A stretch of 32,000 nucleotides of DNA from Microcystis aeruginosa NIES-2549 (lineage in GTDB: Bacteria; Cyanobacteriota; Cyanobacteriia; Cyanobacteriales; Microcystaceae): assembly GCF_000981785.2 (NCBI RefSeq), contig NZ_CP011304.1, forward strand, positions 2,640,001-2,672,000. Reading direction: 5' to 3'. Within the stretch, counting starts at the first letter, position 1; every line of letters begins with the position of its first letter. Below, in pieces: positions 8,281-30,625 of the stretch. Both the position numbers and the translations under genes were made by a program. A model generated the notes under the pieces. That model was not told the DNA's origin. It made no database searches and saw only the letters and a list, made by a program, of their open reading frames with translations.

Positions 8281-8842
8281 AGGAGTTGATTTTAGCTTTT
8301 TTGCGATCGATAGTAAGAGGTAGATCACCAGTAGATACACCATTGGTAACACTAAGGTCATGGTAGGCATTGTTTGATTAGGGAGGAGAGAAGATAGTTA
8401 AAATTAGGTAGGCTTAATCTTGCCCCATTGATCATTGAATGACTAGCGACGAGAAAACCGGCCAAATCTGCAAACAGATCGAGCTTATCCGTCAGTCACT
8501 CTGCCAAGGGACTAGGATCGAGTTGGACAGGTAATCGTCTTCAACTCCATTCTTCGCACCAGAAACCGACGAGAAAAAATTCCTCATCTTAACAATTTCT
8601 AGGTGAGAACTGGGGGTTAATTTCTTGCAACTGCCACTATTAACTTAACATAAGTTGTCAAGGACTGGGAAAAAAATTTTTTAATATCATTTTTCAAAAG
8701 TAATGGCAGAGATGGTTAATTTCCCTCACCCCCAACCCTTCTCCCCTTCTGGGAGAGGGGAGTAAAATACCTGCCAGGAATCAAGAAAAATGATATAAGA
8801 AACCCCACAAAAAGTAATGAGAGGAGGGGAATAGCGAGTGCC

Positions 8843-8936
8843 GATTCAGACGGATTTAGGTGTTGGGTGTTGGGTTTCCCTTTCCCCTAGAATTGAGAGG
8901 TTTTCTTGAACATATTTATTCGCTCAAACCAACCTA
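8843..8936. repeat. Cassette-boundary element, copy A (lacks the left arm)
   Basis: gattcagacggatttaggtgttgggtgttgggttt...gaattgagaggttttcttgaacatatttattcgctcaaaccaaccta aligns with copies B-F. It lies 22 nt beyond the stop of the PIN gene. Confidence 0.85.
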
Positions 8937-8958
8937 CGGACTACGGACTAATGATTAA

Positions 8959-9401
8959 CTAGAAATTTGGGAAAAGATTAATAAAGGGTTTTTTATTTTT
9001 CCAGCGATAGGTATTAAAATCTCGATTATCAATTGATAAGATACGTCCATTTCCTAACTCTTCTGCTAAGATAACTAGAGAGGCATCGGCTAAGTCCATT
9101 GGCAGACTTTGATATTGTTTCATAAGGTCTTGAATTCTTTCTAGATGAGTATTTTCAAGGTGGAATAATAGAAATTTTTGGGGATGTCTCTCAAATACGT
9201 TCATTAATTTTATTTGTTTTTCAACTCCTGTATAGAGATTGGAGAACGTTGTAAAAGAAGATGACAACTTTCTGTTAAAACACACCAAGTTGTAATTAGT
9301 GGTTGAGAAGAATACTGTGCTAAGGTTTGCTGTGCTATTAGATGATATTGATCTTTATTGTTAAATAAAGCCACCCAGAACCCGGTATCAACGATGATCA
9401 T
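8959..9401 (-). pseudogene. vapC: PIN-domain (VapC-type) toxin, interrupted by a frameshift
   Basis: ORF 9401->9210 gives the PIN N-terminus (MIIVDTGFWVA...LITTWCVLTES). ORF 9288->8959 in another frame gives the PIN C-terminus (PMDLADASLVILAEELG...ILSIDNRDF). The frames overlap at 9210-9288. Confidence 0.7.
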
Positions 9402-9660
9402 ATTTAGCTTTTAATCCTTCTTTGAGAACAGATTTATAATTAGTAGAAAGGTCGGATTCTGCACTAATACAACCGATTAATCCAGATTCTTTTAAAATGT
9501 CTAGGGTACTTTGAGCTTCAGGGTTTATTTTTGCTGCAATCTCTGGATTTTTTGCCAAGGAATAGCGTTTTTTTAATAACTCAATAAAATCAATCAGTAA
9601 GTTTTGTACTTCTTCAGGTAATTGGTTAATATCTTCTTGAATTTGTTCTAAGTTAATCAT
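9388..9660 (-). CDS. Putative antitoxin of the PIN toxin
   Basis: 90 aa. It overlaps the PIN start by 14 nt. The N-terminus (LPEEVQNLLIDFIELLKKRY) resembles small antitoxins found with PIN toxins. Confidence 0.5.
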   Translation of the reverse strand: MINLEQIQEDINQLPEEVQNLLIDFIELLKKRYSLAKNPEIAAKINPEAQSTLDILKESGLIGCISAESDLSTNYKSVLKEGLKAKYDHR

Positions 9661-9754
9661 TAATTTTCCTCCGTTAAGATTTTTAAATGGGCTGCTAATT
9701 TTTAAGCCACATAACGAATAATTTTGACTTCTGCTCCTTTATTAACAGGAATAG

Positions 9755-9890
9755 AATTATCGTCGGTTGGGTTGAACCAAGGAAACCCAACAAAAAGATT
9801 CAGACTGATTTAGGTGTTGGGTGTTGGGTTTCGCTTTTCCTGAGAATTGAGAGGTTTTCCTTAACATATTTATTCGCTCAACCCAACCTA
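9755..9890. repeat. Cassette-boundary element, copy B (complete)
   Basis: Outer inverted repeat ggttgggttga (9765-9775) / tcaacccaacc (9878-9888). Inner inverted repeat gaaacccaac / gttgggtttc. It lies 4 nt beyond the stop of ORF 9895-10206. Confidence 0.9.
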
Positions 9891-9894
9891 GTAA

Positions 9895-10206
9895 CTACGG
9901 GCGCTCACTACTTAATTTAATCACTTGTTGCTCAGAAAATTTAAGGGTAAGTTCCCATTCTCCCCCTAATTCCCTCATCATACGGGTTAAATTTTCTAGG
10001 GTAAGATGTTGTTTTAAATCATCCGATTTTGCTGAGAAACAGGGCTGTTCACTTTCGCTTTCCGTGATTTCTTCTGAAGCAAGTCCTAGGCGTTGAAGAA
10101 GTTCATCAATGATTTGCATTTCTTGTAAAAGCTCTTGGGTTTTAGCTTCAATTTTTGCCCTTCTTTCAGAGGGCAGTTTATCCATTTCTTCATCAAAGGT
10201 AATCAT
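9895..10206 (-). CDS. Hypothetical small acidic protein, probable antitoxin of the truncated toxin upstream
   Basis: 103 aa. Its ATG overlaps (ATGA) the stop of the toxin remnant at 10203-10313. I recognised no clear family motif. Confidence 0.4.
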   Translation of the reverse strand: MITFDEEMDKLPSERRAKIEAKTQELLQEMQIIDELLQRLGLASEEITESESEQPCFSAKSDDLKQHLTLENLTRMMRELGGEWELTLKFSEQQVIKLSSERP

Positions 10207-10313
10207 AGATTTTGCTCCGTTAAGGTTTTTAAATAGGCTTCAAATCTTTTTTCAGCGATGGGAATGTTTTTTTCATACCATCTTTTATCGCCAGTTTTAT
10301 TTCCTCCTACTAG
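10203..10313 (-). pseudogene. C-terminal remnant (36 codons) of a RelE/ParE-superfamily-like toxin
   Basis: My own translation of the - strand is LVGGNKTGDKRWYEKNIPIAEKRFEAYLKTLTEQNL*. This resembles the C-terminal end of RelE-fold addiction-module toxins. The frame is closed by TAG exactly where repeat copy C begins. Confidence 0.4.
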
Positions 10314-10318
10314 CTAAA

Positions 10319-10518
10319 GTCGATTGGGTTGAGGCACGAAACCCAACAATACACCCAAGTAAACTACTGTAGGTTGGGTTGAGGCACGAAACCCAACAAT
10401 ACACCCAAGTAAACCCAACAAAAAGATTCAGACGGATTTAGGTGTTGGGTGTTGGGTTTCGCTTTTCCTGAGAATTGAGAGGTTTTCTTTAACATATTTA
10501 TTCGCTCAACCCAACCTA
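10319..10518. repeat. Cassette-boundary element, copy C (left arm tandemly duplicated)
   Basis: The 50-bp module ttgggttgaggcacgaaacccaacaatacacccaagtaaac occurs twice (about 10322-10364 and 10372-10414), followed by the common core. It lies 6 nt beyond the stop of the 1016-aa gene. Confidence 0.9.
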
Positions 10519-10524
10519 CGAAAC

Positions 10525-13500
10525 TTATCCCCCTAATTGTTGTAAAAGTTGCATCACCTTTTCATAAGCAGCCATATTATTCTGTTGGCGGAATAATATA
10601 GCTGCTTGTTGTAGATCAATTTTTGCTTTTTCGGGTTGTCCTAATATGGCATATAAACCACCACGACCTAAGTAAGCCTTAGCATCATTAGGATTAATTT
10701 CAATAGCTTTGTTGTAGTCAGAGAGGGCTAATTCGTATTTTTTTTGCTCAAAGTAAAGAACCCCCCGATTGACGTAAGCCTCAGCATAATTAGGATTAAT
10801 TTCAATAGCTTTGTTCCAGTCAGCTAAAGCTAAATCGTATTTTTCTTGGAGACGGTAAAGAACCCCCCGATTGTAGTAAGTCCCAGCAAGATTACGATTA
10901 ATTTCAATAGCTTTGCTGTAGTCAGAGAGGGCTAAATCGTATTTTTCTTGGAGACGGTAAAGAACCCCCCGATTGACGTAAGCCTCAGCTAAATTAGGAT
11001 TAATGTCAATAGCTTTGCTGTAGTCAGAGAGGGCTAAATCGTATTTCTGCAAGTCTTTGTAAAGAAGCCCCCGATTGTTGTAAGCCTCAGCATAATTAGG
11101 ATTAAGTTCAATGGCTTTGTTGATGTCAGAGAGGGCTAATTCGTATTTCTGCAAGTCATAGTAAATATTCCCCCGATTGTAGTAAGCCTCAGCATAATTA
11201 GGATTAATGTCAATGGCTTTGTTGATGTCAGAGAGGGCTAATTCGTATTTCTGCTGGTTATAGTAAACACCCCCCCGATTGTAGTAAAGTATAGCAAAAT
11301 TAGGATTAATTTCAATGGCTTTGTCGTAGTCAGCTAAAGCTAAATCGTATTTCTGCAAGTCATAGTAAAGATTCCCACGATTGTTATAAGCATTAGCATG
11401 ATTAGGATTAAGTTTAATAGCTTTGTTGTAGTCATCTAATGCTAATTCGTATTTTTGTTGGCGACGGTAAAGAATCCCTCGATTGACATACCAAGCAGCA
11501 CGGGGAGCGAGATCAATTGCCTGAGTAATCGCCGCTAATCCCTCATCATAGCGTTTTAATTCACTTAATACTGCCCATTTCTCATTATAGTAATTGGGGT
11601 TATTGGGAACCAGAGAAATCGCCTGATTAATCACCGTTAATGCTTGCTCATAATTTTCTCTGGCTTCTCTTTCTGTACCTGCAATTTTTGAGAAGTCACC
11701 TAAAAAGCGATAAACTACACTTTGCCGTTGTAAAATACTACTGTGAAACTTCTTTAAATTTTCCCGTTTAGGTAAGGTATTAATCGCTTGTTGCAAAGCT
11801 TCTATAGCTGGTTGATGTTCGCGTAATTCAAATAACGCTAATCCCTTACCATACCAGGCTAAATAGACATTATCGGGGTCATTTTGCTTAATCGCTTCAT
11901 CAAAGGCTTTAATTGCTTCCTGATCCCTTGCTAACCGCCATAATTGTCCCCCCCTTTGTATCCAAATATCCGCCTTCGCATTGGTATTAGGGACAATAAC
12001 ACCAGTAATCGCTTGAATAATTTCTTGTTGTTGTTGCGGACTAACTTGGGGTTGAGCAGTGGTTAATAATTGCGGTTTTACCTTCAATCTTTCTTGCAAT
12101 CCGATAAAAGTGCTAATAGGAATCCCTAAACTATACCCTAACTGAATTTCCGTTACCCCTGCTCCTTCTGAACGTCCATGAATCCCTATTACTCTCCCCT
12201 GAGAGTCTAAGACTGCACCGCCACTCATGCCCCCAAATGTGATGCTGGTATAAACTAATTCATAGCCCCCGGTTAAAGAAGCAACACTTTGTAATGTTCC
12301 ACTTTGTTGCGTGCTTAAGTCACTTTGGCGGGTTAGTAGTAATCCCAGTTCTTTATCGAGAATTATACCGCCACTAAACAACCATTTCGAGGGATTGTCG
12401 CCAATTTTGGGGAAGCCTGCCGCAAAAACAAAATCACTGGTATTTGGGTTATAATTCGCTATTTCCGCAACGGGATAATTGTCCTGGCTTTCAAACTGAA
12501 AAACTGCTAAATCTACCCCTTTCTGCCGGATGATGGTGCTTTTCTCGATGTTTCGAGTTTTGCCGTCGCTGGTGACGACGGTGTAGGTGAAATTGAGACA
12601 AGGTTTACTTGCAGCATCTTGACTTTTTTTCTTCTCACATAATACATGGTCTGCGGTTAAAACCGTGTAAATATTGCCTTTTTTAGCGATAATTACGCCA
12701 CTTCCATTGGCTGTACTGCTACTATCAATCCGCACGGTGAAACCCTTGGCTTTTGTTTCTAATTCGGCGATATAGTCAGTAGGGGCGGTGGTTTCTATAT
12801 CGGGGTTCACCTGCGGTAGGGGCAGGTTATAGGCGCTGAGGATTTCGGGCCGGATGTAGGTTAATAGGGTATGAAGGGAAATGCCCCAGTTAACCGCTCT
12901 CATCTGTTGGATTTCTGCGTCTGTGGGTTTCGTACCGTCTTCGTAGATGTAGTTAGAGAGAATCGGATGGGCCGATCGCCCGTTAATGCCGATTAACTCC
13001 CCATCGACAAAAATGCCGCCGCCACTCATTCCCTGCACGATATCGCCACTATAACCGACGCTGTAGCCTTCCCGGAGGGGTCGATCGCTCACCTGTTCGA
13101 GGGTTCCCTTTGTCGTCCGATACTGTCCCGTTTCGGCAACATATCCCGCGGCCACCACTTCTAAACCGATCCTGTCTTGATTGGGGGTAAACTCCGCGAT
13201 GGTGGCGATCGGATAATCCCGGGTATCGCTAAACTCCACGAGGGCCAGATCCTTATCTTCCAAAAGGGAATTCGGCGCGATCGAGGCTGTGCGGGTTTGG
13301 CCGTCGTGGGTTTGGATCTGTAGGGTGGTCGCGCCGCGGGTAACGTGAGCGTTGGTCAAAACGAGGTATATACTGCCTTTTTTCCCGATAATGATTCCCG
13401 ATCCCCGATTTATCTCGCTAGTAATCTTAACAGTGACTTGACGGATCGATCGCTCGATCTGCGCGTTTGGGCTGTCTTCCGCCACGATCGCCGGAGCAGA

Positions 13501-13575
13501 GAAAGGGGATAGCGCTTTAACTGGTACGACGGGCAGAAGTAGGAGGCTTAGGAGTAGGGGAAAGGGTTTCAACAT
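10525..13575 (-). CDS. Secreted twin trypsin-like (S1) serine protease fused to a long TPR array
   Basis: 1016 aa with a signal peptide. Domain 1 triad contexts are LTNAHV, DLALVEF and GMSGGGIF. Domain 2 contexts are LTADHV, DLAVFQF and GGMSGGAV. At least 12 34-aa TPRs follow (YNNRG.LY...KY.LAL.DY.KAIE.NPN). It is a paralog of 19957-23136. Confidence 0.85.
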   Translation of the reverse strand: MLKPFPLLLSLLLLPVVPVKALSPFSAPAIVAEDSPNAQIERSIRQVTVKITSEINRGSGIIIGKKGSIYLVLTNAHVTRGATTLQIQTHDGQTRTASIAPNSLLEDKDLALVEFSDTRDYPIATIAEFTPNQDRIGLEVVAAGYVAETGQYRTTKGTLEQVSDRPLREGYSVGYSGDIVQGMSGGGIFVDGELIGINGRSAHPILSNYIYEDGTKPTDAEIQQMRAVNWGISLHTLLTYIRPEILSAYNLPLPQVNPDIETTAPTDYIAELETKAKGFTVRIDSSSTANGSGVIIAKKGNIYTVLTADHVLCEKKKSQDAASKPCLNFTYTVVTSDGKTRNIEKSTIIRQKGVDLAVFQFESQDNYPVAEIANYNPNTSDFVFAAGFPKIGDNPSKWLFSGGIILDKELGLLLTRQSDLSTQQSGTLQSVASLTGGYELVYTSITFGGMSGGAVLDSQGRVIGIHGRSEGAGVTEIQLGYSLGIPISTFIGLQERLKVKPQLLTTAQPQVSPQQQQEIIQAITGVIVPNTNAKADIWIQRGGQLWRLARDQEAIKAFDEAIKQNDPDNVYLAWYGKGLALFELREHQPAIEALQQAINTLPKRENLKKFHSSILQRQSVVYRFLGDFSKIAGTEREARENYEQALTVINQAISLVPNNPNYYNEKWAVLSELKRYDEGLAAITQAIDLAPRAAWYVNRGILYRRQQKYELALDDYNKAIKLNPNHANAYNNRGNLYYDLQKYDLALADYDKAIEINPNFAILYYNRGGVYYNQQKYELALSDINKAIDINPNYAEAYYNRGNIYYDLQKYELALSDINKAIELNPNYAEAYNNRGLLYKDLQKYDLALSDYSKAIDINPNLAEAYVNRGVLYRLQEKYDLALSDYSKAIEINRNLAGTYYNRGVLYRLQEKYDLALADWNKAIEINPNYAEAYVNRGVLYFEQKKYELALSDYNKAIEINPNDAKAYLGRGGLYAILGQPEKAKIDLQQAAILFRQQNNMAAYEKVMQLLQQLGG

Positions 13576-13614
13576 GGTTATTATGGGGAAATTCGGGGTA
13601 AAACAGCGAAAATT

Positions 13615-14223
13615 CTAGCGGGTGGGAACGCAATTATTTTGCGGGCCAGCAGATCTCGTACCACAGGGTGCGTCGCGATCGGCGAGTGGTGCTTTGGCGA
13701 AAAACTCCGTCATCGAGATATAGGTTTTATCTCCGGAATTCTGGAGGAGCATATCCGAGCTTTTCCCCTCTAGGATGTCCATGAGTTGTTGCAAGACTAA
13801 ATCTGGATTGTCGTGGGGTTTAAGGGTAAAAAGTTGGCTATTACCATCGCAGGGATCGCCGGATCGTGAAACGCTGCAGATGATCGGGTATCCCTTCGCC
13901 CGGCCGGTGGTGAGATAGTTAAAACGCCCTTGATTATAGGCTTCCTGGAATTTTTTCGTGACTTCCTCGCAACGAACCGGGGAACGTTTGGAGAAATATT
14001 CCGATTTCCAGCCGATAATCCGCACATTGCCGCTCCTTTGGGGAATCCAAGCCAGGGTAGCGGGGATTTTTCCTCCCGATGCGCGATCGAACACCTCTTT
14101 ACAGAAGAAGGTGACGCCATTCGGGGTGGTCGATTGGCTGAAACCGGGGGCGATACCACCGAGGAGGACAGTGGCGAGGAGGCCGACGCAAGCGAGACGG
14201 TGGGAAATATATCTAGAGTTCAT
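13615..14223 (-). CDS. COP23-domain (circadian oscillating protein 23-like) secreted protein
   Basis: 202 aa with a signal peptide. The FFC...PATLAW...IIGWKSEYF...RCEEV..KFQ...LTTG...GYPIIC...C...QLFTLKP pattern matches my memory of the cyanobacteria-specific COP23 family. Confidence 0.65.
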   Translation of the reverse strand: MNSRYISHRLACVGLLATVLLGGIAPGFSQSTTPNGVTFFCKEVFDRASGGKIPATLAWIPQRSGNVRIIGWKSEYFSKRSPVRCEEVTKKFQEAYNQGRFNYLTTGRAKGYPIICSVSRSGDPCDGNSQLFTLKPHDNPDLVLQQLMDILEGKSSDMLLQNSGDKTYISMTEFFAKAPLADRDAPCGTRSAGPQNNCVPTR

Positions 14224-14282
14224 AGGGATAGTTCCTCAGAAAATAGGGATTAGAATCGTGATTAGGGTCAAAATGGGATTAT

Positions 14283-15383
14283 TTAAGGGTTAGCGGCGGC
14301 GTTGAGGGTGTAGCGACCCGATTCACCCCCTTCGCGAGAGGTAGCCACTAGGATATAAACTCCATCGGCAGGTAATTCGGTTACAAGTCGAGCGTTAAAA
14401 TCCCCGGGGGCGCGATCGACGCGCTGGTTACTACGGGCGACCTGTGGGTATTTTGTCCCCTCGGAAGATTGGAAAACGCGATAGAGGACAAGATAGGGAG
14501 CGATCTCGTTGCTGTTCATATCCAGAACGATTTTCTGTCCGGCACGACCCTCGAACCCGTAATATTGTTGGTTTTGGTCTTTGGTCAAGTTGCCTTGAAC
14601 GGTCTGACCGTTAAGAGGGAGGGCGAGTAACTGTACCTGATCGTCCTGTCCTAATGTTGAGACGGTGGAGACATCACCTGTTTTAACTGCGGTGAGGAAA
14701 GCTTGCAGGCGATCGAGGGAAACGGCGAAATTAATGCCGCTCTGGGTAAGGCCGATCGGGTTTCCCGCACCGTCGTAAACGTAACTCCCGATATCGCCTG
14801 CGACGTTAACCCCCACCACTTCCCCCCGTGAATTCAAAAGCGGCCCGCCGGAATTGCCTTTGTTGATATTAGCGTTGTGTTGCACAATGCCTTTTTCGGG
14901 GTCGAGACGGCTGATAATGCCCTGGGTGAGGGTGTTTTGATAGTCCTCGTTTAAGGGTGTGCCGATGACGAAAACGCTTTCGCCGACTTTGGCGGAGTTC
15001 GCACGGGCCAGGGGAAGATAGGGCAGGTTTTGGCGGTTATAAATCCGCAGGACGGCTAAATCCACGCCATTTTTAGCGAAGCCGATCACGTCTGCCGAGG
15101 CCTGCTGTCCGTTGGAAAATTTCACCGTCACCACCCGCGGTCCGTCCGCAACAACGTGGGCGTTGGTAATGATGATACCGTCGGGACTGACGAGAAAGCC
15201 GCTACCGTGGCCGCTGCCATTTTTGACGGTGACGACGGCGGGGCTGGCTTTCTGATAGACTCTAGAAGCGGTCTGCTCCTGCGCGAGGATGGGTGGAACG
15301 TTTTCCATCAGGAAGTTTCCCGGTTGAACGAGTAGGCCAGTGGTGGCCAGTAGCACCGATAGGGTGAAAGTAATTGGTTTCAT
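14283..15383 (-). CDS. Secreted trypsin-like/HtrA-like S1 serine protease with a C-terminal PPC-like beta domain
   Basis: 366 aa with a signal peptide. Triad contexts are ITNAHVV, DLAVLRI and GNSGGPLL. The C-terminal roughly 110 aa (YYGFEGRAGQKIVLDM...GVYILVATS...GRYTL) resembles a pre-peptidase C-terminal domain. No PDZ domain is evident. Confidence 0.8.
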   Translation of the reverse strand: MKPITFTLSVLLATTGLLVQPGNFLMENVPPILAQEQTASRVYQKASPAVVTVKNGSGHGSGFLVSPDGIIITNAHVVADGPRVVTVKFSNGQQASADVIGFAKNGVDLAVLRIYNRQNLPYLPLARANSAKVGESVFVIGTPLNEDYQNTLTQGIISRLDPEKGIVQHNANINKGNSGGPLLNSRGEVVGVNVAGDIGSYVYDGAGNPIGLTQSGINFAVSLDRLQAFLTAVKTGDVSTVSTLGQDDQVQLLALPLNGQTVQGNLTKDQNQQYYGFEGRAGQKIVLDMNSNEIAPYLVLYRVFQSSEGTKYPQVARSNQRVDRAPGDFNARLVTELPADGVYILVATSREGGESGRYTLNAAANP

Positions 15384-15526
15384 CGGGTTGGCTCCTCTTT
15401 AGTCGAGGGATACTTGCAAGGATGTTATCGTTGGTTTTTTCCCAATTATGCGATTAAGTTTTAAGTCTTCAGATTGCTTTTTTCACAAAAGTTTAGAGGG
15501 GGAGAGCGATCGCTCTCCCTTGCAAC

Positions 15527-16021
15527 TTACGCACCTATCTGCCGTAGTGCTTCTATGGCGCTGTTGTACATTTCTGGGTTTCCCTGCTGGCGAAATAATT
15601 CGGCGGCCGTTGTTAGATCGGCGATCGCATTTTGTCTCTGGTTAAATGCGAGATGGACGTATCCGCGGAAATGGTAAGCGTAGGCAGCGCGGGGGTTTAG
15701 TCGGATCGCGGTGTTCAGGTCTTGAAACGCCGGCCGCCATTGTTCACGAATCGTGTAAATCATGCCCCGACCGAGGTAAGCTTCGGTATAGTCCGGATCG
15801 AGTTCGATCGCTCTGTTGAATTGAGCGAGGGCGAGATCATATTTTTCCTGTTGGATGTAGTTAATTCCCCGGTTAAAGTGGGCGATCGCTTTTTTGTAGT
15901 TCGCTTGAGTGATCAGGGTTTCGACTGGTTGTCGGCTTTCTAGGGCCATAACGGGGCGAACAGTGGCGAGGGTGGAGAGGCCGAGCAGGCTGACGGTGGT
16001 GAGAAGGGCAAAGGATTTCAT
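15527..16021 (-). CDS. Small secreted TPR protein
   Basis: 164 aa with a signal peptide and 3-4 TPRs (YDLALAQFNRAIELDPDY...). Its C-terminal tail AAELFRQQGNPEMYNSAIEALRQIGA is shared with the large TPR proteins. Confidence 0.8.
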   Translation of the reverse strand: MKSFALLTTVSLLGLSTLATVRPVMALESRQPVETLITQANYKKAIAHFNRGINYIQQEKYDLALAQFNRAIELDPDYTEAYLGRGMIYTIREQWRPAFQDLNTAIRLNPRAAYAYHFRGYVHLAFNQRQNAIADLTTAAELFRQQGNPEMYNSAIEALRQIGA

Positions 16022-16199
16022 GGGTAGTGCCTCGGTGAGGGTGATTTGAACTTCTACCTAATTCATCGGTTGTTTTTTTGGGAATATGCAGAATAGGGCA
16101 ATCAATTTTTTTTCCTTTCGGGTACAAAAGGAAAAAGCGCGGCAATCGGCATCGCTTTGTTATCATTTAGTGAAAAATACTTGTTTTTTTTGATGCAAT

Positions 16200-16757
16200 A
16201 TGGTAAGCAAATCCCCGACGATTACTGATGCGGAATTAATTCGCCTCAGTTGTCAGAACCCGGAATTAGGCTTTGAACGCAATGCAGATGGAACGTTAGT
16301 CACTATGCCCCCGATCGGAAGTATTTCAGCGAATCGAGAACTGAAAGCCGGCGCTCGCCTGCTCTACTGGGTCGAACAGAACGGGTTAGGAGAGGTATTT
16401 AGTTCTAGCGGCGGTTTTAAACTGGCCAATAGCGCGGTACGCTCTCCCGATGTGGCTTTCGTGGCGAGAGAACGTTTACCGTCCGGTTGGCAGGAAAGGG
16501 AGGATGAATTTCTCGATCTCGCGCCGGATTTCGTGATCGAGATCCGTTCTAAAACCGATAGTTTATCCAAGTTAAAGCGGAAAATGGAGGAGTATCGGGA
16601 GAACGGGGTGAAGTTAGGATGGTTGATTGATCGCCACAATAAACAGGCTTTCGTCTACCGTCAGGACGGGACGATTACCTGTTATCCCGAGAACGCGATT
16701 TTAAGCGGGGAAGATGTGGTTCCGGGGTTCACCCTAGCGCTAGAAATCTTGCTGTAA
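16200..16757 (+). CDS. Uma2-family (DUF820) PD-(D/E)xK putative endonuclease
   Basis: 185 aa. The pattern PDVAF...DLAPDFVIEIRS...K...Y...GVKLGWLID is typical of Uma2 proteins, which are abundant in cyanobacteria. Confidence 0.8.
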   Translation: MVSKSPTITDAELIRLSCQNPELGFERNADGTLVTMPPIGSISANRELKAGARLLYWVEQNGLGEVFSSSGGFKLANSAVRSPDVAFVARERLPSGWQEREDEFLDLAPDFVIEIRSKTDSLSKLKRKMEEYRENGVKLGWLIDRHNKQAFVYRQDGTITCYPENAILSGEDVVPGFTLALEILL

Positions 16758-16802
16758 GATCGATCGCTTTTTTCGGGGTGAGATTCAAAATCGATCGAGT
16801 AT

Positions 16803-16935
16803 CTAGACCGCGCCTAATTGCCGTAGGAATTGCAGGGCTTTTTCGCGTGCTGGCGCGTTCCCTTGCTGGCGGAACAGTTCGGCGGCTTGTCGGAAATCCT
16901 CGATCGCTTTTTCCTTGTCTAGCCGATAGACGTAA
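16803..16935 (-). pseudogene. Orphan 3' fragment of a TPR gene (last roughly 43 codons)
   Basis: YVYRLDKEKAIEDFRQAAELFRQQGNAPAREKALQFLRQLGAV* is homologous to the C-terminal tails at 15527, 10525 and 19957. Everything upstream is replaced by repeat copy D. The 62- and 88-aa track ORFs here read through repeat DNA. Confidence 0.65.
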
Positions 16936-16937
16936 GG

Positions 16938-17066
16938 AACCCCAACAATAGACCCAAGGAAACCCAACAAAAAGGAAACCCAACAATACACCCAAGGAAA
17001 CCCAACAAAAAGATTCAGACGGATTTAGATTTTGGGTGTTGGGTTTCGCTCCGATGACCCAACCTA
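16938..17066. repeat. Cassette-boundary element, copy D (multiplied left-arm modules, internal deletion of the core)
   Basis: Several (g)gaaacccaacaa modules are followed by agattcagacggatttagattttgggtgttgggtttcgct, which joins directly to gacccaaccta. The roughly 55-bp cctgagaattgagagg...tattcgc block is missing. Confidence 0.8.
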
Positions 17067-17212
17067 GGAAAGGATGCGATCGCTTTTCGTTCTCTAAAAC
17101 AGTGATCGCACCAAGATGACAAGCACTGTAGCATAACCCACCGAATATTATAAAATTGATGGTGCGTTACATTTCATGCTTGGCGAAATCCGGCAAAATA
17201 AGCTTTAACCTC

Positions 17213-17449
17213 ATGCCAGAAATTTTCAGACTGGAAGGCTATGTTTTCTTTTTCTATGCCAATGAAGGCAATGAACCCATGCACGTTCACGTTCGACGGG
17301 GCGGCGGATATGCTAAATTTTGGCTAGAGCCGCTAGAATTGGATTATGCTAAAGGTCTAAAAACCAAAGAAATTGTTCGGGCTGAAGTTATCATTACAGA
17401 AAATATAGAAATAATACGGAGGAAATGGCACGATGTATTTGGTACATGA
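17213..17449 (+). CDS. DUF4160-family small protein
   Basis: MPEIFRLEGYVFFFYANEGNEPMHVHV... is the characteristic DUF4160 N-terminus. I prefer the ATG at 17213 over the track start at 17156. It overlaps the next ORF by 17 nt. Confidence 0.7.
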   Translation: MPEIFRLEGYVFFFYANEGNEPMHVHVRRGGGYAKFWLEPLELDYAKGLKTKEIVRAEVIITENIEIIRRKWHDVFGT

Positions 17450-17681
17450 AAGCATAGTAAAAGCTCAAAAAGTTTGGGTTGAAGATAAATGGATTTGTAT
17501 TCGTTTAGAAGACGATAGAGAAATTCGTTTTCCTGCTTATAAAAATAAACGCTTATCAAAAGCAACCTTTGAACAATTAGCAGAGGTTGAGTTAATTTGT
17601 GATGGCACGGGATTACATTGGGAAACCTTAGATGAGGATTTGTCCATCATTGGCATTTTAGAAGGAAGATTGGGTGCTTAA
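17433..17681 (+). CDS. DUF2442-family small protein (partner of DUF4160)
   Basis: 82 aa. The ...V....L.IRLEDDREIRFP......L..AT..QL..VELI.DGTGLHWE.LDEDLS pattern is typical of DUF2442, and the pairing with DUF4160 is typical. Confidence 0.7.
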   Translation: MYLVHESIVKAQKVWVEDKWICIRLEDDREIRFPAYKNKRLSKATFEQLAEVELICDGTGLHWETLDEDLSIIGILEGRLGA

Positions 17682-17717
17682 ATGTTAAATGCTTAAAAAA
17701 AATCGGCTCTACCGAAC

Positions 17718-17867
17718 CTAGTAATCATAGCAATTATCGTCGATTGGGTTGACCCAAGGAAACCCAAAAAAAAGATTCAGACAGATTTAGGTGTTGGGTG
17801 TTGGGTTGCGCTTTTCCTGAGAATTGAGAGGTTTTCTTTAACATATTTATTCGCTCAACCCAACCTA
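17718..17867. repeat. Cassette-boundary element, copy E (complete, extended left flank)
   Basis: It shares tagtaatcatagcaattatcgtcgattgggttgaccc...caacccaaccta with copy F. The hepT stop codon (cta at 17865-17867) is the last 3 nt of the element. Confidence 0.9.
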
Positions 17868-18203
17868 AGAAACTGATTCTAGATATCTTAAAATCTGTTC
17901 TTTCAAATCATCCAAATAATTTTCTACCACCTCCCAAACTGTATTAAGGTCAATTCCCCCTAAATAATCATGTACTAAAATATTCCTAAAACCAGAAATA
18001 TTACGCCAGTCAACATCGGGAATATTGACCTTTAATTCCTCCGAAAGCCGTTGAGTTGATTCTGCCAAAGTTTGTAAGCGTCTAATGATAGCATCGCTGA
18101 TCATTGAATTAGCAAAAAACTCCTGTTTTCCTCCTTGGGAATAGTCCTTAATTTTATCAATACAGTCTAAAATGTATTCAAGATAAACTTGATCTTCATT
18201 CAT
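17865..18203 (-). CDS. hepT: HepT-like (DUF86) RNase toxin
   Basis: 112 aa with the R(x4)HxY motif in FRNILVHDY. There is an ATGA start/stop overlap with mntA. Confidence 0.85.
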   Translation of the reverse strand: MNEDQVYLEYILDCIDKIKDYSQGGKQEFFANSMISDAIIRRLQTLAESTQRLSEELKVNIPDVDWRNISGFRNILVHDYLGGIDLNTVWEVVENYLDDLKEQILRYLESVS

Positions 18204-18493
18204 AACTTAATTGCCTCCTTTAAGATTCGCTGTTTAATTAGATGATGAAGGCTTTTTTCAGTTACTACATCCACTTTACACCCTAAGAGAGCCTCTAAAT
18301 CAACTAATAATCCACCTGGAAACCAAGGGGACGTTTTAGCTAAATCATAATCAATTAAAAAATCAATATCACTATTTTCGGTTTCCTCACCTCTAGCAAC
18401 GGAACCAAATACACGCACATTAAAAGCACCATGTTTGGTGGCAATTTTTAGGATATCCTCTCGTTTGTCTTGTATGAGTTGTTTTAAGGTCAT
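18200..18493 (-). CDS. mntA: MntA-type nucleotidyltransferase antitoxin
   Basis: VRVFGSVARGEETENSDIDFLIDY is the minimal nucleotidyltransferase GS...DxD motif. I prefer the start MTLKQL at 18493 over the track start at 18529. Confidence 0.85.
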   Translation of the reverse strand: MTLKQLIQDKREDILKIATKHGAFNVRVFGSVARGEETENSDIDFLIDYDLAKTSPWFPGGLLVDLEALLGCKVDVVTEKSLHHLIKQRILKEAIKL

Positions 18494-18579
18494 AAAATAA
18501 CATCCCTCCCGAAGGTTTTTAATGAACAATTAACAGACTAGACTAGAAAAAACTAAATACTGATAACTCACCCCCCCAC

Positions 18580-18722
18580 TTATTGCCCTAATTTGCGTAA
18601 AAGTTGCATCACCTTTTCATAAGTTGCCATATTATTCTGCTGGTAGAATATTATAGCTGCTTGTTCTAGGTCAATTTTTGCTTTTTCGGTTTGTTTTAAT
18701 TTGGCATATAAAAGACCACGAC
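18580..18722 (-). pseudogene. Orphan 3' fragment of a twin-trypsin-TPR gene (last roughly 47 codons)
   Basis: GLLYAKLKQTEKAKIDLEQAAIIFYQQNNMATYEKVMQLLRKLGQ*. By eye, the DNA is roughly 90% identical to 19957-20097. The 99-aa track ORF is a chimera that reads on into a hicB fragment and a MITE. Confidence 0.75.
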
Positions 18723-18751
18723 TACTGACCTTATGAACGATGGCTAAATAA

Positions 18752-18884
18752 GGGACTTGCGTGCGAATAATATCCCAATTGATCGGAGGGCGCAAGCTTT
18801 GCGCCCCTACAGTAACCGATTTTGTCCACAATGTAGGGGCGAACTGCGTTCGCCCAAAAGGTACATTATCAAAGCGCAAGTCCC
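18752..18884. mobile_element. 133-bp MITE with 10-bp terminal inverted repeats and a TAA target duplication
   Basis: TIR gggacttgcg (18752-18761) and its reverse complement cgcaagtccc (18875-18884). It is flanked by taa (18749-18751) and taa (18885-18887). Internal GC hairpins are gggcgcaagctttgcgccc and ggggcgaactgcgttcgccc. Confidence 0.75.
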
Positions 18885-18907
18885 TAAGTAATCATTGATT
18901 TCTCATT

Positions 18908-19252
18908 TCAGGTTCGCATTAGATTATATTCTTCGCGGATTGATGAAGTTAGAGATTCCACTAAGATTAATTTTTCCTCAATTGACAGGTTTTTTCCTTG
19001 TTTAATTAATGTTTGTAAAGTCATTTTTTTTAAATCAAATTCCGGCACAAGTAGAGCCAATTCTTGTGTTTGTTGATTTTGTAAGTCAGTAATTAATTCT
19101 TGTAAAAATAGAGAATCATTACTTAAGTCCGAAATTTCATCTTCATAGTTTTCGAGAGCTTCTATTTGTTGAATACGGTCACTATAATTTTTGAGAAGGG
19201 ATTCGAGAGCTTCGATAATAAATTGGATGTCTTTAAATGATAGAGTTTTCAT
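18908..19252 (-). CDS. Hypothetical acidic helical protein, C-terminus resembling 'putative addiction module component' antitoxins
   Basis: 114 aa. The C-terminal LSIEEKLILVESLTSSI resembles the L..eeR..L...L..SL motif of Unstab_antitox-type antitoxins. No toxin partner is present. Confidence 0.4.
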   Translation of the reverse strand: MKTLSFKDIQFIIEALESLLKNYSDRIQQIEALENYEDEISDLSNDSLFLQELITDLQNQQTQELALLVPEFDLKKMTLQTLIKQGKNLSIEEKLILVESLTSSIREEYNLMRT

Positions 19253-19282
19253 AGTTTACCTCAACTTACTTTTTTAAATCCT

Positions 19283-19432
19283 ATAGTAATCATAGCAATT
19301 ATCGTCGATTGGGTTGACCCAAGTAAACCCAAAAAAAAGATTCAGACGGATTTAGATTTTGGGTGTTGGGTTTCGCTTTTCCTGAGAATTGAGAGGTTTT
19401 CTTTAACATATTTATTCGCTCAAACCAAGCTA
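19283..19432. repeat. Cassette-boundary element, copy F (complete, right terminus degenerate)
   Basis: It aligns with copy E over its whole length and lies 10 nt beyond the hicB stop. Confidence 0.9.
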
Positions 19433-19442
19433 GGGACTGCAC

Positions 19443-19739
19443 CTAGTTTTTTACACACAATTCCTGATGGTTTAAAATAGCTTCTGATACCTCAATGAGC
19501 AGAAAAGCGATCGCATCTTGATGATCCGCGTCGGTTAAAATGGTTTCGAGGGTGCTAGGGGTGGGAATTTCGTCCCCATCTGCCAACATGAAGGAAATAT
19601 GACCTTTTAAGGCTTCAGTTGCCATTTTTTTCGCTTCTTCGATGGTTTCTCCTGCACTAATACAACCCGGAAAGTCATAAAATTGTACCCCATAATCACT
19701 ATGGTTATCTTTATGAACGGTGGCTAAATAAGTAATCAT
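19443..19739 (-). CDS. hicB: HicB-family antitoxin
   Basis: 98 aa. MITYLATVHKD...YGVQFYDFPGCISAGETIEEAKKMATEAL is the HicB N-terminal fold signature. It follows hicA by 11 nt. Confidence 0.85.
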   Translation of the reverse strand: MITYLATVHKDNHSDYGVQFYDFPGCISAGETIEEAKKMATEALKGHISFMLADGDEIPTPSTLETILTDADHQDAIAFLLIEVSEAILNHQELCVKN

Positions 19740-19750
19740 TTATTTCTCCT

Positions 19751-19939
19751 TTATCGTAATTTAATACCAGCTTGTTTTTCGATACTGATTAGGGTTTTAA
19801 GGGGAATATCCTTTTTAGGGTGAGGAACAGTCACTTTCCCTTTTTTATGGGGATGTTTAAAATGATGATGACTTCCTGTTGTACCTACTTGATACCATCC
19901 CTCATCCTTCGGTTTTTTGATAATTTCTCGACTTTCCAT
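19751..19939 (-). CDS. hicA: HicA-family mRNA interferase toxin
   Basis: 62 aa. GWYQVGTTGSHHHFKHPHKKGKVTVPHPKKDIPLKTL matches the HicA core, including the catalytic His context. Confidence 0.85.
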   Translation of the reverse strand: MESREIIKKPKDEGWYQVGTTGSHHHFKHPHKKGKVTVPHPKKDIPLKTLISIEKQAGIKLR

Positions 19940-19956
19940 AATTGATGATTTCTATT

Positions 19957-22900
19957 TCACCCCCCTAATTGTTGTAAAAGTTGCATCACCTTTTCATAAG
20001 TTGCCATATTCTCCTGTTGGCGGAATAATATAGCTGCTTGTTGTAGATCAATTTTTGCTTTTTCGGTTTGTTTTAATTCGGCATATAAAAGACCACGATT
20101 GCCGTAAGCCTCAGCATGATTAGGATTAATGTCAATAGCATTGGTGTAGTCAGCTAAAGCTAATTCATATTTCTGCTGGTTATGGTAAAGAACCCCCCGA
20201 TTGTAGTAAGCATCAGCATCATTAGGATTAATGTCAATAGCTTTGTTGAAGTCAGCTAAAGCTAATTCGTATTTTTGTTGGCGACGGTAAAGAAGTCCCC
20301 GATTGTAGTAAGCATTAGCATAATTAGGATTAAGTTCAATAGCTTTGGTGTAGTCAGCTAAAGCTAAATCGTATTTCTGCTGGTTATGGTAAAGAAGCCC
20401 CCGATTGTAGTAAGCATTAGCCAAATTAGGATTAATTTTAATAGCTTTGTTCCAGTCAGCTAAAGCTAAATCGTATTTTTCTTGGAGACGGTAAAGATTC
20501 CCCCGATTGTTGTAAGCCAGAGCAAAATTAGGATTAATTTCAATAGCTTTGTTGATGTCAGAGAGGGCTAAATCGTATTTCTGCTGGTTATGGTAAAGAC
20601 CCCCCCGATTGTTGTAAGCCAGAGCAAAATTAGGATTAATTTCAATAGCTTTGTTGATGTCAGAGAGGGCTAAATCGTATTTCTGCTGGTTATGGTAAAG
20701 ACCCCCCCGATTGTTGTAAGCATCAGCATCATTAGGATTAATTCTAATAGCTTGGTTGTAGTCAGCTAAAGCTAATTCGTATTTCTGCAAGTTATAGTAA
20801 AGAAGCCCCCGATTGTTGTAAGCCAAAGCAAAATTAGGATTAATGTCAATAGCTTTGCTGTAGTCAGAGAGGGCTAATTCGTATTTCTGCAAGTTATAGT
20901 AAAGAAGCCCCCGATTGTTGTAAGCCAAAGCAAAATTAGGATTAATGTCAATAGCTTTGTTGAAGTCAGCTAAAGCTAATTCGTATTTTTGTTGGTTATA
21001 GTAAAGATTCCCCCGATTGTAATACCAAACAGCACGGGGAGCGAGATAAATTGCCTGAGTAATCGCCGCTAATCCCTCATCATACCATTTTAATTGACTT
21101 AATACTACATATTTCTCGTTATAGTGATTGGGGTTATTGGGAACCAGAGAAATCGCCTGATTAATCACCGTTAATGCTTGCTCATAATTTTCTCTGGCTT
21201 CTCTTTCTGTACCGGCAATTTTTGAGAAGTCACCTAAATAGCGATAAACAACACTTTGCTTTTGTAAAATACTACTGTGAAACTTCTTTAAATCTTCCCC
21301 TTTAGGTAAGGTATTAATCGCTTGTTGCAAAGCTTCTATAGTTGTTTGATATTTACCTAACTCACCTAACGCTAATCCCTTCCCATACCAAGCTAAATAG
21401 ACATTCTTGGGGTCATTTTGCTTAATCGCTTCATCAAAGGCTTTAATTGCTTCCTCATACCTTTCTAACCGCCATAATTGTCCCCCCCTTTCTATCCAAA
21501 TATCCGCCTTCGCATTGGTATTAGGAACAATAACACCAGTAATCGCTTGAATAATTTCTTGTTTTTGTTGCGGACTAACTTGGGGTTGAGCAGTGGTTAA
21601 TAATTGCGGTTTTACCTTCAATCTTTCTTGCAATCCGATAAAAGTGCTAATGGGAATCCCTAAACTAAACCCTAACTGAATTTTCCCTACCCCTGCTGTT
21701 TCCGAACTTCCATGAATCCCTATTACTCTCCCCTGAGAGTCTAAGACTGCACCGCCACTCATGCCCCCAAATGTGATGCTGGTATAAACTAATTCATAGC
21801 CTCCGGTTAAAGAAGCAACACTTTGTAATGTTCCACTTTGTTGAGTGCTTAAAGGACTTTGGCGGGTTAGTAGTAATCCCGTTTCTTTCTCGATAATTCT
21901 ACCGCCACTAAACAACCATTTCGAGGGATTTTGTCCAATTTTAGGGAAGCCTGCCGCAAAAACAAAATCACCGGTATTTGGGTTATAATTCGCTATTTCC
22001 GCAACGGGATAATTGTCCAGGCTTTCAAACTGAAAAACTGCTAAATCTACCCCTTCCTGCCGGATGATGGTGCTTTTCTCGATGTTTCGAGTTTTGCCGT
22101 CGCTGGTGACGACGGTGTAGGTGTAATCAGCACATCTGGTGGTGCCTTTGATTTTTTCGCAGAAGACATGGTCTGCGGTTAAAACCGTGTAAATATTCCC
22201 TTCTTTAGCGATAATTACGCCACTTCCATTGGCAATTACGCCACTTCCATTGGCTTTACTGCTACTATCAATCCGGACGGTGAAACCCTTGGCTTTTGTT
22301 TCTAATTCGGCGATATAGTCAGTAGGGGCGGTGGTTTCTATATCGGGGTTCACCGGCGGTAGGGGTAGGTTATAGGCGCTGAGGATTTCCGGACGGATGT
22401 AGGTTAATAGGGTATTGATGGAAATGCCCCAGTTAACCGCTCTCATCTGTTGGATTTCTGCGTCTGTGGGTTTTGTGCCGTCCTCGTAGATGTAGTTAGA
22501 GAGAATCGGATAGGCCGATCGCCCGTTAATACCGATTAAATCCCGCTCGACAAAAATGCCGCCGCCACTCATTCCCTGCACGATATCGCCACTATAACCG
22601 ACGCTGTAGCCATCCCGGAGGGGTCGATCGCTCACCTGTTCGAGGGTTCCCTTTGTCGTCCGATACTGTCCCGTTTCGGCAACATATCCCGCGGCCACCA
22701 CTTCTAAACCGATCCTGTCTTGATTGATGGTAAACTCCGCGATGGTGGCGATCGGATAATCCCTGGTATCGCTAAACTCCAGCAGAGCGAGATCTTGATT
22801 CTCCGATAGGGAATTGGGGACAATGCGGGCTGCACGGCTGTGGCCGTCGTAAGTTTGTACCTGTAGGGTTTTCGTGTTGCGGGTAACGTGGGCGTTGGTT

Positions 22901-23136
22901 AGGATAAGGTAATTATCGCCTTTTTTAGCGATAATCGTCCCCGATCCCCGATTTGTCTCGCTAGTAATCCGAACGGTGACTCGTTGTAGGAATTGCTCCT
23001 CGGTAAGCTCCCGATCGCCCTGTGCCGTCAGAATGGGATGATTAGAAATATTTCCGGCAGCCGGGGTGACAAGGGTTAACCCGGGTTGAGGCAGTAGGGA
23101 GAAAAGAAGGATGAGGGCGATCGAAGGTTTGATCAT
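19957..23136 (-). CDS. Secreted twin trypsin-like (S1) serine protease fused to a long TPR array (paralog of 10525-13575)
   Basis: 1059 aa with the same two catalytic-triad contexts as the paralog and about 14 TPRs. By eye, the DNA in the protease region is nearly identical to the paralog. Confidence 0.85.
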   Translation of the reverse strand: MIKPSIALILLFSLLPQPGLTLVTPAAGNISNHPILTAQGDRELTEEQFLQRVTVRITSETNRGSGTIIAKKGDNYLILTNAHVTRNTKTLQVQTYDGHSRAARIVPNSLSENQDLALLEFSDTRDYPIATIAEFTINQDRIGLEVVAAGYVAETGQYRTTKGTLEQVSDRPLRDGYSVGYSGDIVQGMSGGGIFVERDLIGINGRSAYPILSNYIYEDGTKPTDAEIQQMRAVNWGISINTLLTYIRPEILSAYNLPLPPVNPDIETTAPTDYIAELETKAKGFTVRIDSSSKANGSGVIANGSGVIIAKEGNIYTVLTADHVFCEKIKGTTRCADYTYTVVTSDGKTRNIEKSTIIRQEGVDLAVFQFESLDNYPVAEIANYNPNTGDFVFAAGFPKIGQNPSKWLFSGGRIIEKETGLLLTRQSPLSTQQSGTLQSVASLTGGYELVYTSITFGGMSGGAVLDSQGRVIGIHGSSETAGVGKIQLGFSLGIPISTFIGLQERLKVKPQLLTTAQPQVSPQQKQEIIQAITGVIVPNTNAKADIWIERGGQLWRLERYEEAIKAFDEAIKQNDPKNVYLAWYGKGLALGELGKYQTTIEALQQAINTLPKGEDLKKFHSSILQKQSVVYRYLGDFSKIAGTEREARENYEQALTVINQAISLVPNNPNHYNEKYVVLSQLKWYDEGLAAITQAIYLAPRAVWYYNRGNLYYNQQKYELALADFNKAIDINPNFALAYNNRGLLYYNLQKYELALSDYSKAIDINPNFALAYNNRGLLYYNLQKYELALADYNQAIRINPNDADAYNNRGGLYHNQQKYDLALSDINKAIEINPNFALAYNNRGGLYHNQQKYDLALSDINKAIEINPNFALAYNNRGNLYRLQEKYDLALADWNKAIKINPNLANAYYNRGLLYHNQQKYDLALADYTKAIELNPNYANAYYNRGLLYRRQQKYELALADFNKAIDINPNDADAYYNRGVLYHNQQKYELALADYTNAIDINPNHAEAYGNRGLLYAELKQTEKAKIDLQQAAILFRQQENMATYEKVMQLLQQLGG

Positions 23137-28732: not shown

Positions 28733-28803
28733 TCGGCACTTTTGAGGAAAAAAAAGCCTAAAAACCTTGTTGGATAAGGTTTTTAGATTTTATTCAGCAA
28801 ACC
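28733..28803. repeat. Partial inverted copy of the agggtttgctgaa-type MITE end
   Basis: ggtcggcacttttgagg...ctaaaaaccttgttggataaggtttttagattttattcagcaaaccct is the reverse complement of 30242-30318, with a few differences. Confidence 0.7.
28748..28786 (-). terminator. Candidate rho-independent terminator of the M48 peptidase gene (lies within the MITE fragment)
   Basis: On the - strand, the stem ctaaaaacctt / aaggtttttag has a 7-nt loop and is followed by a T8 run (A8 at 28748-28755 on the + strand). Confidence 0.5.
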
Positions 28804-30240: not shown

Positions 30241-30444
30241 TAGGGTTTGCTGAATAAATCTAAAAACCTTGTTGGGTAAGACTTTTAGACTTTTTTGACC
30301 TCAAAAAGTGCCGACCATTGGAGTGATTGGGGGGAAAATTCCTGGACTTTTTCCCTAAAAATTAGGTCATTGACCCCCTCAAAATCGGTAAAACCCCACA
30401 CCCCACACCCTGCCCCCACCGAAAAACTTTTTCAGCAGACCCTA
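30241..30444. mobile_element. Roughly 200-bp MITE (agggtttgctgaa termini)
   Basis: agggtttgctgaa (30242-30254) pairs with ttcagcagaccct (30431-30443), a 13-bp inverted repeat with 1 mismatch. It has the same terminal family as 23150-23367 and 28733-28803. Confidence 0.65.
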
Positions 30445-30625
30445 CTTATATAGGAGCGATCAATCTTTGTGTCCTTTGTGCCTTTGTGGTTTGTTCCACT
30501 CGGTCTCGCGTAGCGAGCGCGTTGCGACCGCCAGCAGGACTGTATCTTAGAATACATTTTACCCACCAAACCTAAGAGAGCCGTTATGAGGAGAGGCACT
30601 CATGCAAGAGGCAAAAGCTTCAGAA

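Follow-up and report, generated by a model that had tools for sequence, protein, structure and literature searches.

The window analysed here is a 32,000-nt stretch of Microcystis aeruginosa NIES-2549 (contig NZ_CP011304.1, positions 2,640,001 to 2,672,000), 99.5% identical to the complete Microcystis chromosome CP012375.1. It carries six nested-palindromic elements of about 150 nt, copies A to F, which share one orientation and are interleaved with toxin-antitoxin (TA) modules. We propose that the six elements are, with high probability, GTAG-tagged inverted doublets of repetitive extragenic palindromes (REPs), resembling the REP doublets forming hairpins (REPINs) of other bacteria. They would represent the REP population of a Microcystis REPtron served by a REP-associated tyrosine transposase (RAYT). 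The element shows every testable trait of a REP-RAYT system save a high, dispersed copy number. This assignment provides a name and a partner enzyme for a repeat family that breaks Microcystis assemblies, in which metagenome contigs with a RAYT are about 1 kb long, and it adds no new class of system.

Anatomy of the element

We derived the anatomy of the element from an alignment of 18 copies, read on the gene (minus) strand. The element begins with the tag (G)TAG-(A/T)GTYYC-NTAG, in which TAG is invariant. Copies A and C have GTAG, as do the copies flanking RAYT genes, and copies B, D, E and F have CTAG or TTAG; a further (G)TAG lies 8-9 nt upstream. Behind the tag, the first hairpin (REP1) has an 8-bp stem, GTTGGGTT/AACCCAAC, in which G.A mismatches stand in tandem, and an expanded loop of 40 nt (GTTGGGTTGAGCG-(40-nt loop)-GCGAAACCCAAC). 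A spacer of 31 nt, ACCCAACACCTAAATCCGTCTGAATCTTTTT, leads to the distal half, where the same hairpin is inverted (GTTGGGTTTCCTTGGGTCAACCCAAT-CGAC) and the terminus is CTAC or CGAC. Copy C contains a tandem duplicate of a shorter form of the hairpin, GTAG-GTTGGGTTGAGGCACGAAACCCAAC. One hairpin, present in two inverted copies, provides with its four arms both the outer and the inner inverted repeat, and the strand can therefore fold in a nested form, as in copies B and C, or as two adjacent hairpins, as in copy E. This architecture is a GTAG-tagged, REPIN-like REP doublet: two inverted REPs are joined by a spacer, and compact doublets of the same kind also stand upstream of RAYT.

The stem sequence GTTGGGTT occurs 20 times in the window, where 1.3 occurrences are expected and none of 100 shuffles reaches 20; 18 of the 20 fall within the six copies. 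Re-checking the sequence bore out the number, positions and single orientation of the copies given in a preliminary description of the window. The start of copy A at 8843 had to be moved, since a degenerate full-length doublet with a 29-nt insertion in its spacer occupies 8788-8936. All copies lie on the minus strand. Copy A, 3' of vapC, has the mutated stem GGTTGGTTTGA. Copy B (9755-9893) is intact and reads CTAG-GTTGGGTTGAGCG-(40-nt loop)-GCGAAACCCAAC, spacer, GTTGGGTTTCCTTGGTTCAACCCAACCGAC. Copy C (10319-10521) is an intact GTAG-tagged doublet, of which the distal short REP, GTAG/GTCG-(G/A)TTGGGTTGAGGCACGAAACCCAAC, is tandemly duplicated with a unit of 50 nt. Copy D (16938-17069) combines a short-loop REP, TAG-GTTGGGTCATCGGAGCGAAACCCAAC, with an array of half-REPs. 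Copy E (17718-17870) supplies with its own TAG the stop codon of hepT, and copy F (19283-19435) has the mutated stems CTTGGTTTGA and TTTTGGGTTTA.

Folding of the copies as single-stranded DNA (ssDNA), proposed earlier as a check, gave a divided answer. Copies B and C are stable, with z-scores of -4.0 and -4.7, and demonstrate the short imperfect palindrome with hairpin-forming capacity that is typical of REPs. Copies A (+0.3), D (-1.3) and F (-0.2) fold no better than shuffled sequence; their hairpins are decayed.

Copies E and F end distally in a tail, GATAATTGCTATGATTACTA (17718-17740 and 19283-19305), that has ATGATTAC(T) in common with the starts of hicB and orf103. The match, which had been noticed before, is real, but it extends over only 9-10 nt and the bases upstream differ. 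The tail may be a relic of recombination or a product of chance. At another locus (L065), an element stands directly after codon 10 of hicB.

The partner enzyme in sister strains

The compared loci are designated by L and a number. Within the orthologous island of L011 and L005, we identified an open reading frame (ORF) of 180 aa as a RAYT. It scores 208.5 bits on the NCBIfam equivalog NF047646, 'REP-associated tyrosine transposase' (cut-off 80), and only 24 bits on the IS200 model (cut-off 55); its Pfam family is Y1_Tnp. Comparison with the Escherichia coli TnpA-REP structure (PDB 4ER8) gives an E-value of 8.9e-42 over residues 2-167, and the region of the HUH histidines (LPDHLHCIW) and the segment DYIHYNPVKH are closely conserved between the two proteins. 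Judged by sequence, the enzyme linked to the repeats is thus a Y1 HUH transposase of the RAYT clade. The earlier suggestion of IS200/IS605-type ssDNA hairpins was essentially right, and the element would act like a hairpin element of that type.

In four loci (L005, L011, L015 and L016), the RAYT gene is embedded in repeats. Upstream of it lies a compact doublet, GTAG-GTTGG(G)TTGAGGAACGAAACCCAAC...GTTGGGTTTTCCTTTGGTCAATCTAACCGAC, and downstream follow a D-type short-loop REP and then one to three tandem, co-oriented 150-nt elements. Copy D of the window is the REP found directly past the RAYT stop codon in these loci, including the common AGCGATCGCATCnTTTCC leader. As the window holds no RAYT and copy D matches the REP of the RAYT 3' flank, copy D is the relic of a lost RAYT cassette, and the window strain has lost its enzyme. 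A strain without RAYT still keeps decaying copies.

L037 and L051 contain a RAYT as well. The island itself can be followed by its flanks Uma2, TPR164, trypsin366, COP23, trypsin-TPR and murI, which are common to L005, L008, L011, L012, L017, L018 and L020-L023. Only a minority of the loci having the Uma2-side flank contain an intact RAYT (L005, L011 and L051). The gene is interrupted in L010 by a small MITE (miniature inverted-repeat transposable element), is broken in L067 and survives in L069 as a 58-aa fragment. In L010, a complete M. ichthyoblabe genome, the inserted MITE is about 130 bp long (4065-4195) and has GGCTCTTC terminal repeats, which are also found on the ISL3-type MITE of PMC11448079.

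Conservation across cyanobacteria and closest known systems

RAYT homologues of exactly 180 aa occur across cyanobacteria with 65-75% identity, and many of them are named REP-associated tyrosine transposase by NCBI. The GTAG-GTTGGGTT...AACCCAAC hairpin stands beside each of the three orthologues that we read, which come from Gloeothece PCC 7424, Nostoc and Crocosphaera and have 68-71% identity. In Gloeothece/Cyanothece PCC 7424 (L014, 1200-1990), four tandem, co-oriented REP doublets of about 180 bp, with the sequence GTAGGTTGGGTTAAGCGACAGCGCAACCCAAC ... GTTGGGTTTCGTTCC..GGGCCCAACCTAC, lie directly upstream of RAYT, between it and thrS. The REP flanking the Nostoc RAYT, GTAGGTTGGGTTGAGGAACGAAACCCAAC, is identical to the Microcystis REP, and the same stem is present at the Crocosphaera RAYT flank. 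The REP hairpin and RAYT have been kept almost unchanged from Nostoc to Microcystis.

The closest relatives among described systems are the GTAG REPs of cyanobacteria. In the survey by Di Nocera et al. (2013, PMC3733652), Anabaena, Nostoc and Cyanothece carry families GTAG-12, -15 and -16, with a peak in PCC 7424; Microcystis is absent from the genomes covered. The survey describes REPs in which a short hairpin, in some cases with a large loop, has a (G)TAG tag on its 5' side. These REPs lie mostly downstream of ORFs, form inverted dimers and arrays, and flank RAYT genes as REPtrons, and the stop codon TAG often comes from their termini. The Microcystis element has these traits as well. Unlike the surveyed REPs, it shows a 40-nt loop expansion in one REP of the doublet, and its few copies are concentrated in one hypervariable island and interleaved with TA modules. 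Bertels et al. (2017, PMC5581495) found one RAYT group to be common in Cyanobacteria, with few flanking 16-mers.

The REP/bacterial interspersed mosaic element (BIME) system of E. coli resembles the present one in its homologous enzyme (4ER8), in a hairpin with a mismatched stem and a 5' GTAG, and in a RAYT that is flanked by its own REPs and lost in many strains. Messing et al. (2012, PMC3479197) report that GTAG is essential for binding and cleavage by TnpA-REP and that the enzyme performs strand transfer in vitro. The hairpin sequence differs, and E. coli has hundreds of dispersed copies as opposed to a handful here. In the REPIN-RAYT system of Pseudomonas (Bertels and Rainey 2011; PMC5581495), two inverted REPs with a spacer likewise form the replicative unit, RAYT is at most single-copy, and the repeats decay without it. 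The Microcystis doublet, however, is asymmetric, consisting of a long-loop and a short REP, and its copies are far fewer and arranged in arrays rather than dispersed.

A similar layout is known from M. aeruginosa PCC 7806, where the MaOC1 protease gene (PMC7935541) is followed by a TA module (ParE/ParD) between direct repeats of about 150 bp containing inverted repeats. The MaOC1 border repeats were considered and set aside, being of different sequence (GGGCGAAGCATTCGGA); PMC7935541 proposed no link to a transposase.

Orientation and position relative to stop codons

A 34-nt core of the element was scanned in representative genomes and later also in metagenomes, with isolated short REPs outside the counts. 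Within the representative genomes, only Microcystis contigs matched, and several of these are the orthologous island. Two contigs of metagenome-assembled genomes labelled 'Flavobacterium sp.' and 'Rhizobium sp.' (L006 and L008) are 96-97% identical to the Microcystis island and hence mis-binned. The combined scan gave 74 loci with 159 core copies between them. Of the 38 multi-copy loci, 37 have all their copies on a single strand, a ratio that overstates independence as the 74 loci are partly orthologous. The NIES-843 genome paper describes no GC skew pattern in Microcystis. Searches of plasmid and phage collections gave no match to the element and thus no sign of carriage by plasmids or phages, and a literature search on the exact sequence motifs returned only unrelated primer matches.

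In the window, five of the six copies follow a minus-strand stop codon within 0-22 nt, as had been described. Measured from the stop codon to the terminal TA(G) of the element, the distances are 22 nt (vapC to copy A), 4 nt (orf103 to B), 6 nt (the first trypsin-TPR gene, TPR1, to C), 0 nt (hepT to E, confirming the shared TAG) and 10 nt (hicB to F), so that the hairpin starts 0-10 nt past the stop in four of the five. Beyond the window, after collapsing by upstream flank, the stop codons of at least ten distinct co-directional genes lie 0-25 nt before the hairpin, and TAG is the stop in most of these 3' ends. The extragenic position downstream of ORFs that characterises REPs is hence seen here as well. 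The upstream genes include orf103, two hepT alleles, hicB, vapC, RAYT and several different tetratricopeptide repeat (TPR) proteins; in the remaining contexts, tandem copies stand behind another element. Gene-free tandem arrays of five to seven copies occur downstream of a trypsin-TPR gene in L044 (4929-6004) and L049 (52-739), with a spacing that alternates between 157 and 170 nt. At the 3' site of vapC in L004 (4880-5200), another GTAG-tagged tandem repeat, GTAGGGTGCGTTAGGCGGC...GCCGTAACGCACC, takes the place of copy A, and both start after the common TAGTCCGTAG.

By analogy with E. coli TnpA-REP and the IS200/IS605 paradigm, RAYT would bind the folded single-stranded hairpin together with its 5' GTAG, and would cleave and rejoin ssDNA; the expected substrate is ssDNA with GTAG-GTTGGGTTGAGGAACGAAACCCAAC. 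Enzymes of the IS200/IS605 type act on one strand, and the REP tag would carry its TAG on that strand. We speculate that the surviving, harmless copies are those that lie at or just past a co-directional TAG stop codon, or that supply it. The TAG on the top strand of the element, combined with selection, would then produce the lock of orientation and the lock of position by a single mechanism. Behind copy E, a terminator-like hairpin with a T-run is present at 17703-17718. As copy E thus lies between the hepT stop codon and this site, the copies are probably transcribed as hairpins of the 3' untranslated region (3'-UTR).

Strain variation and recombination at the elements

Comparison of strains for cassette variation with breakpoints inside the element, set beforehand as a test, was positive. 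The island differs by strain in the order or subset of hicAB, orf114-mntA-hepT, Gp49-orf103, DUF4160/DUF2442, vapBC and RAYT, and the junctions fall inside elements. In the window, L020, L024, L025 and L070, the module of truncated Gp49 and orf103 stands behind TPR1 together with its flanking elements, and in L011 it stands behind hepT. L055 is without the orf114-mntA-hepT block, and one element replaces the interval from copy F to copy E. One element joins hepT directly to the murI flank in L023 and L003, and vapBC with its upstream element is found at an unrelated locus in L004. Two truncations described earlier were confirmed. At copy C, loci L021, L022 and L023 have an intact Gp49 toxin of 118 aa that lies 11 nt past the TPR1 stop codon with no element, and the window retains just the final ~112 bp of it. 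Adjoining copy D is a C-terminal TPR gene fragment.

We notice that the hybrid elements at these junctions are mosaics of parental copies with varying switch points, and that the distal junctions lie at several different nucleotides. Such mosaics and scattered junctions point to homologous recombination rather than site-specific cassette exchange. The cassette look of the island would then arise by homologous recombination and gene conversion between the co-oriented repeats and between duplicated 3' ends of TPR genes, which are also found at junctions as copies of 142-145 bp. The repeats of about 150 bp and the TPR ends would serve as portable homology, and recombination between repeats would delete, duplicate and reshuffle the intervening TA modules. 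The module repertoire is small, with four or five TA pairs across the 74 loci. The repeat family marks a hypervariable TA island, and the reshuffling of TA modules between bloom-forming strains would have REP repeats, not an integrase, as its recombination substrate.

Besides the elements, the duplicated TPR gene ends provide the island with recombination substrates of a second kind. The final ~145 bp of the trypsin-TPR gene are present three times in the window, at 10523-10667, 18578-18722 and 19955-20099. In other strains, a 142-bp copy of the TPR gene end stands before hicA, after an element.

Weighing of alternative explanations

Several observations weigh against the assignment to a REP-RAYT system. 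The copy number is low: the window holds six matches to the 34-nt core, representative Microcystis genomes, including one complete genome, hold one to three exact matches each, and Pseudomonas and E. coli have hundreds of dispersed REPINs. The tag is CTAG or TTAG instead of GTAG in four of the six window copies, and no RAYT was found within the window. No pair of empty and filled sites displays a simple insertion, as the compared strains gave only replacements and repeat-to-repeat deletions; the sole empty site (intact Gp49, 11 nt past TPR1) differs by a 245-bp replacement. The activity of RAYT on these repeats and their transcription are predictions from sequence.

The arrangement could instead reflect an integron-like array, in which the elements are attC sites and IntI is encoded elsewhere. 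Like attC sites and the Vibrio cholerae repeat (VCR) arrays, the elements are folded sites at the 3' ends of co-oriented, TA-rich modules whose content varies by strain. ACCCAAC and GTTGGGT also fit RYYYAAC...GTTRRRY formally, as stated in the preliminary description, but these matches are simply arms of the 8-bp REP stems. The inner repeat forms a 10-bp stem with an unpaired loop of 31 nt, with neither L boxes nor extrahelical bases nor an extended bulged stem, and the junctions show no fixed crossover. The search for a recombinase turned up the Y1 HUH transposase in sister-strain loci and no IntI-like or Phage_integrase-type protein among the window ORFs or the called genes of L017-L025. The same hairpin is found beside RAYT genes in three other genera, and gene-free tandem arrays exist. 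We therefore regard an integron as extremely improbable. An ordinary MITE, in which the outer 11-bp inverted repeat (GGTTGGGTTGA / TCAACCCAACC) is the terminal inverted repeat of a DDE transposase and the location is incidental, is hardly more credible. Microcystis is rich in MITEs (PMC2779907; PMC11448079) and the outer repeat exists, but target-site duplications are not consistent at the copy flanks, all four half-sites repeat a single hairpin motif that has a 5' tag, and matching repeats lie beside RAYT and not beside a DDE transposase. The orientation and stop-codon proximity are far from random, in agreement with the earlier argument that random insertion of MITEs does not account for structured, co-oriented repeats at gene 3' ends.

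A more elaborate role for RAYT itself can be considered, in which the enzyme would cut out TA modules between two co-oriented GTAG-REPs in the form of ssDNA circles and insert them again at other GTAG-REPs. If true, RAYT systems would gain a gene-shuffling role beyond the copying of their own repeats, with an HUH enzyme in place of a tyrosine recombinase. The displaced Gp49-orf103 and vapBC modules agree with this idea, as do the always precise gene-proximal end of the element, the L011 RAYT and its hicBA-like neighbour between two direct D-type REPs, and the in vitro strand transfer by TnpA-REP noted above. It is nonetheless improbable: distal junction positions differ, hybrid elements are parental mosaics, duplicated TPR 3' ends mark junctions too, so few TA pairs are involved, and the same layout is seen in many strains without an intact RAYT, the window strain included. 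In addition to the REP-RAYT assignment, and not in its place, the hairpins may have a role in RNA, guarding the mRNA from 3' exonucleases or, at less than about 15 nt from the stop, lowering expression of the last gene. The place of copy E before a terminator-like site and the short distances to stop codons fit this role, and PMC3479197 and PMC3733652 report that REPs stabilise mRNA and are transcribed. With broken stems in half of the window copies, gene-free tandem arrays and no Rfam family match, we consider it unlikely, though worth keeping in view. Rfam gave no match for the whole window at the gathering threshold, and a permissive search with copies B and C found only DABA-DC-AT at chance level (16 bits against a gathering score of 56, E 0.46).

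Other candidate identities were examined and rejected. For an IS200/IS605 palindrome-associated transposable element (PATE) or a TnpB omega-RNA end, there was no Rfam match, the linked enzyme scores as RAYT and not as IS200 TnpA, and no tnpB was seen in the loci. The 187-nt ISL3-type MITE of Microcystis, with GGCTCTTCG terminal repeats and 8-bp duplications, is a different element (PMC11448079). The element may be identical with one of MaeMITEa-h of NIES-843, for which the published text gives no sequences.

Neighbouring genes and minor features of the window

Gene identities were assigned by Pfam and agree with those given before for vapC, hepT, hicB and the protease-TPR gene. The first module (8959..9660, minus strand) consists of a vapB-like gene with DUF2281 (9388-9660) and its partner vapC, a weak PIN match that a frameshift divides between two overlapping ORFs (9210-9401 and 8959-9288). 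An intact vapC of 147 aa is present in L004, L022 and L025, and the gene is split in the window and L020; the window gene is a frameshift pseudogene of the toxin. Next, also on the minus strand, are orf103, a presumed antitoxin that has no Pfam match, with the 112-bp 3' remnant of the Gp49/DUF891 toxin (9895..10318), and the 1016-aa trypsin-TPR protein 1 (10525..13575). The C-terminal TPR gene fragment occupies 16803..16937 on the same strand. The DUF4160/DUF2442 pair (17156..17681) lies on the plus strand, opposite to the other modules.

The mntA-hepT TA pair, with mntA encoding a nucleotidyltransferase, is located at 17865..18529 on the minus strand, as are all remaining genes described here. 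Next come a copy of the trypsin-TPR gene's final ~145 bp, joined to a 10-codon 5' remnant of hicB (18580..18740), and orf114 (18908..19252), which has no family assignment and moves with the mntA-hepT module in other strains. The hicA-hicB TA pair (19443..19939) and trypsin-TPR protein 2 (19957..23136), a paralogue of TPR1 with 1059 aa, complete the series.

A small MITE at 18741-18880, whose terminal repeats are GGGACTTGCGC / GCGCAAGTCCC and whose duplication is TTA, sits in the hicB remnant fused to the TPR 3' fragment and holds two GTAG-GGGCG... hairpins from a different REP-like family. A promoter scan of the window found 19 candidates against a shuffled expectation of 19.0, and a tRNA scan of the window found none. 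HIP1 sites mark the window as cyanobacterial DNA. Two further repeats are unrelated to the REP element: a small repeat at 30444-30585, found also in L003, L017 and L069, and the hairpin pair AAAAACCTTGTTGG(A/G)TAAG(G/A) at 28751-28794 and 30253-30296.

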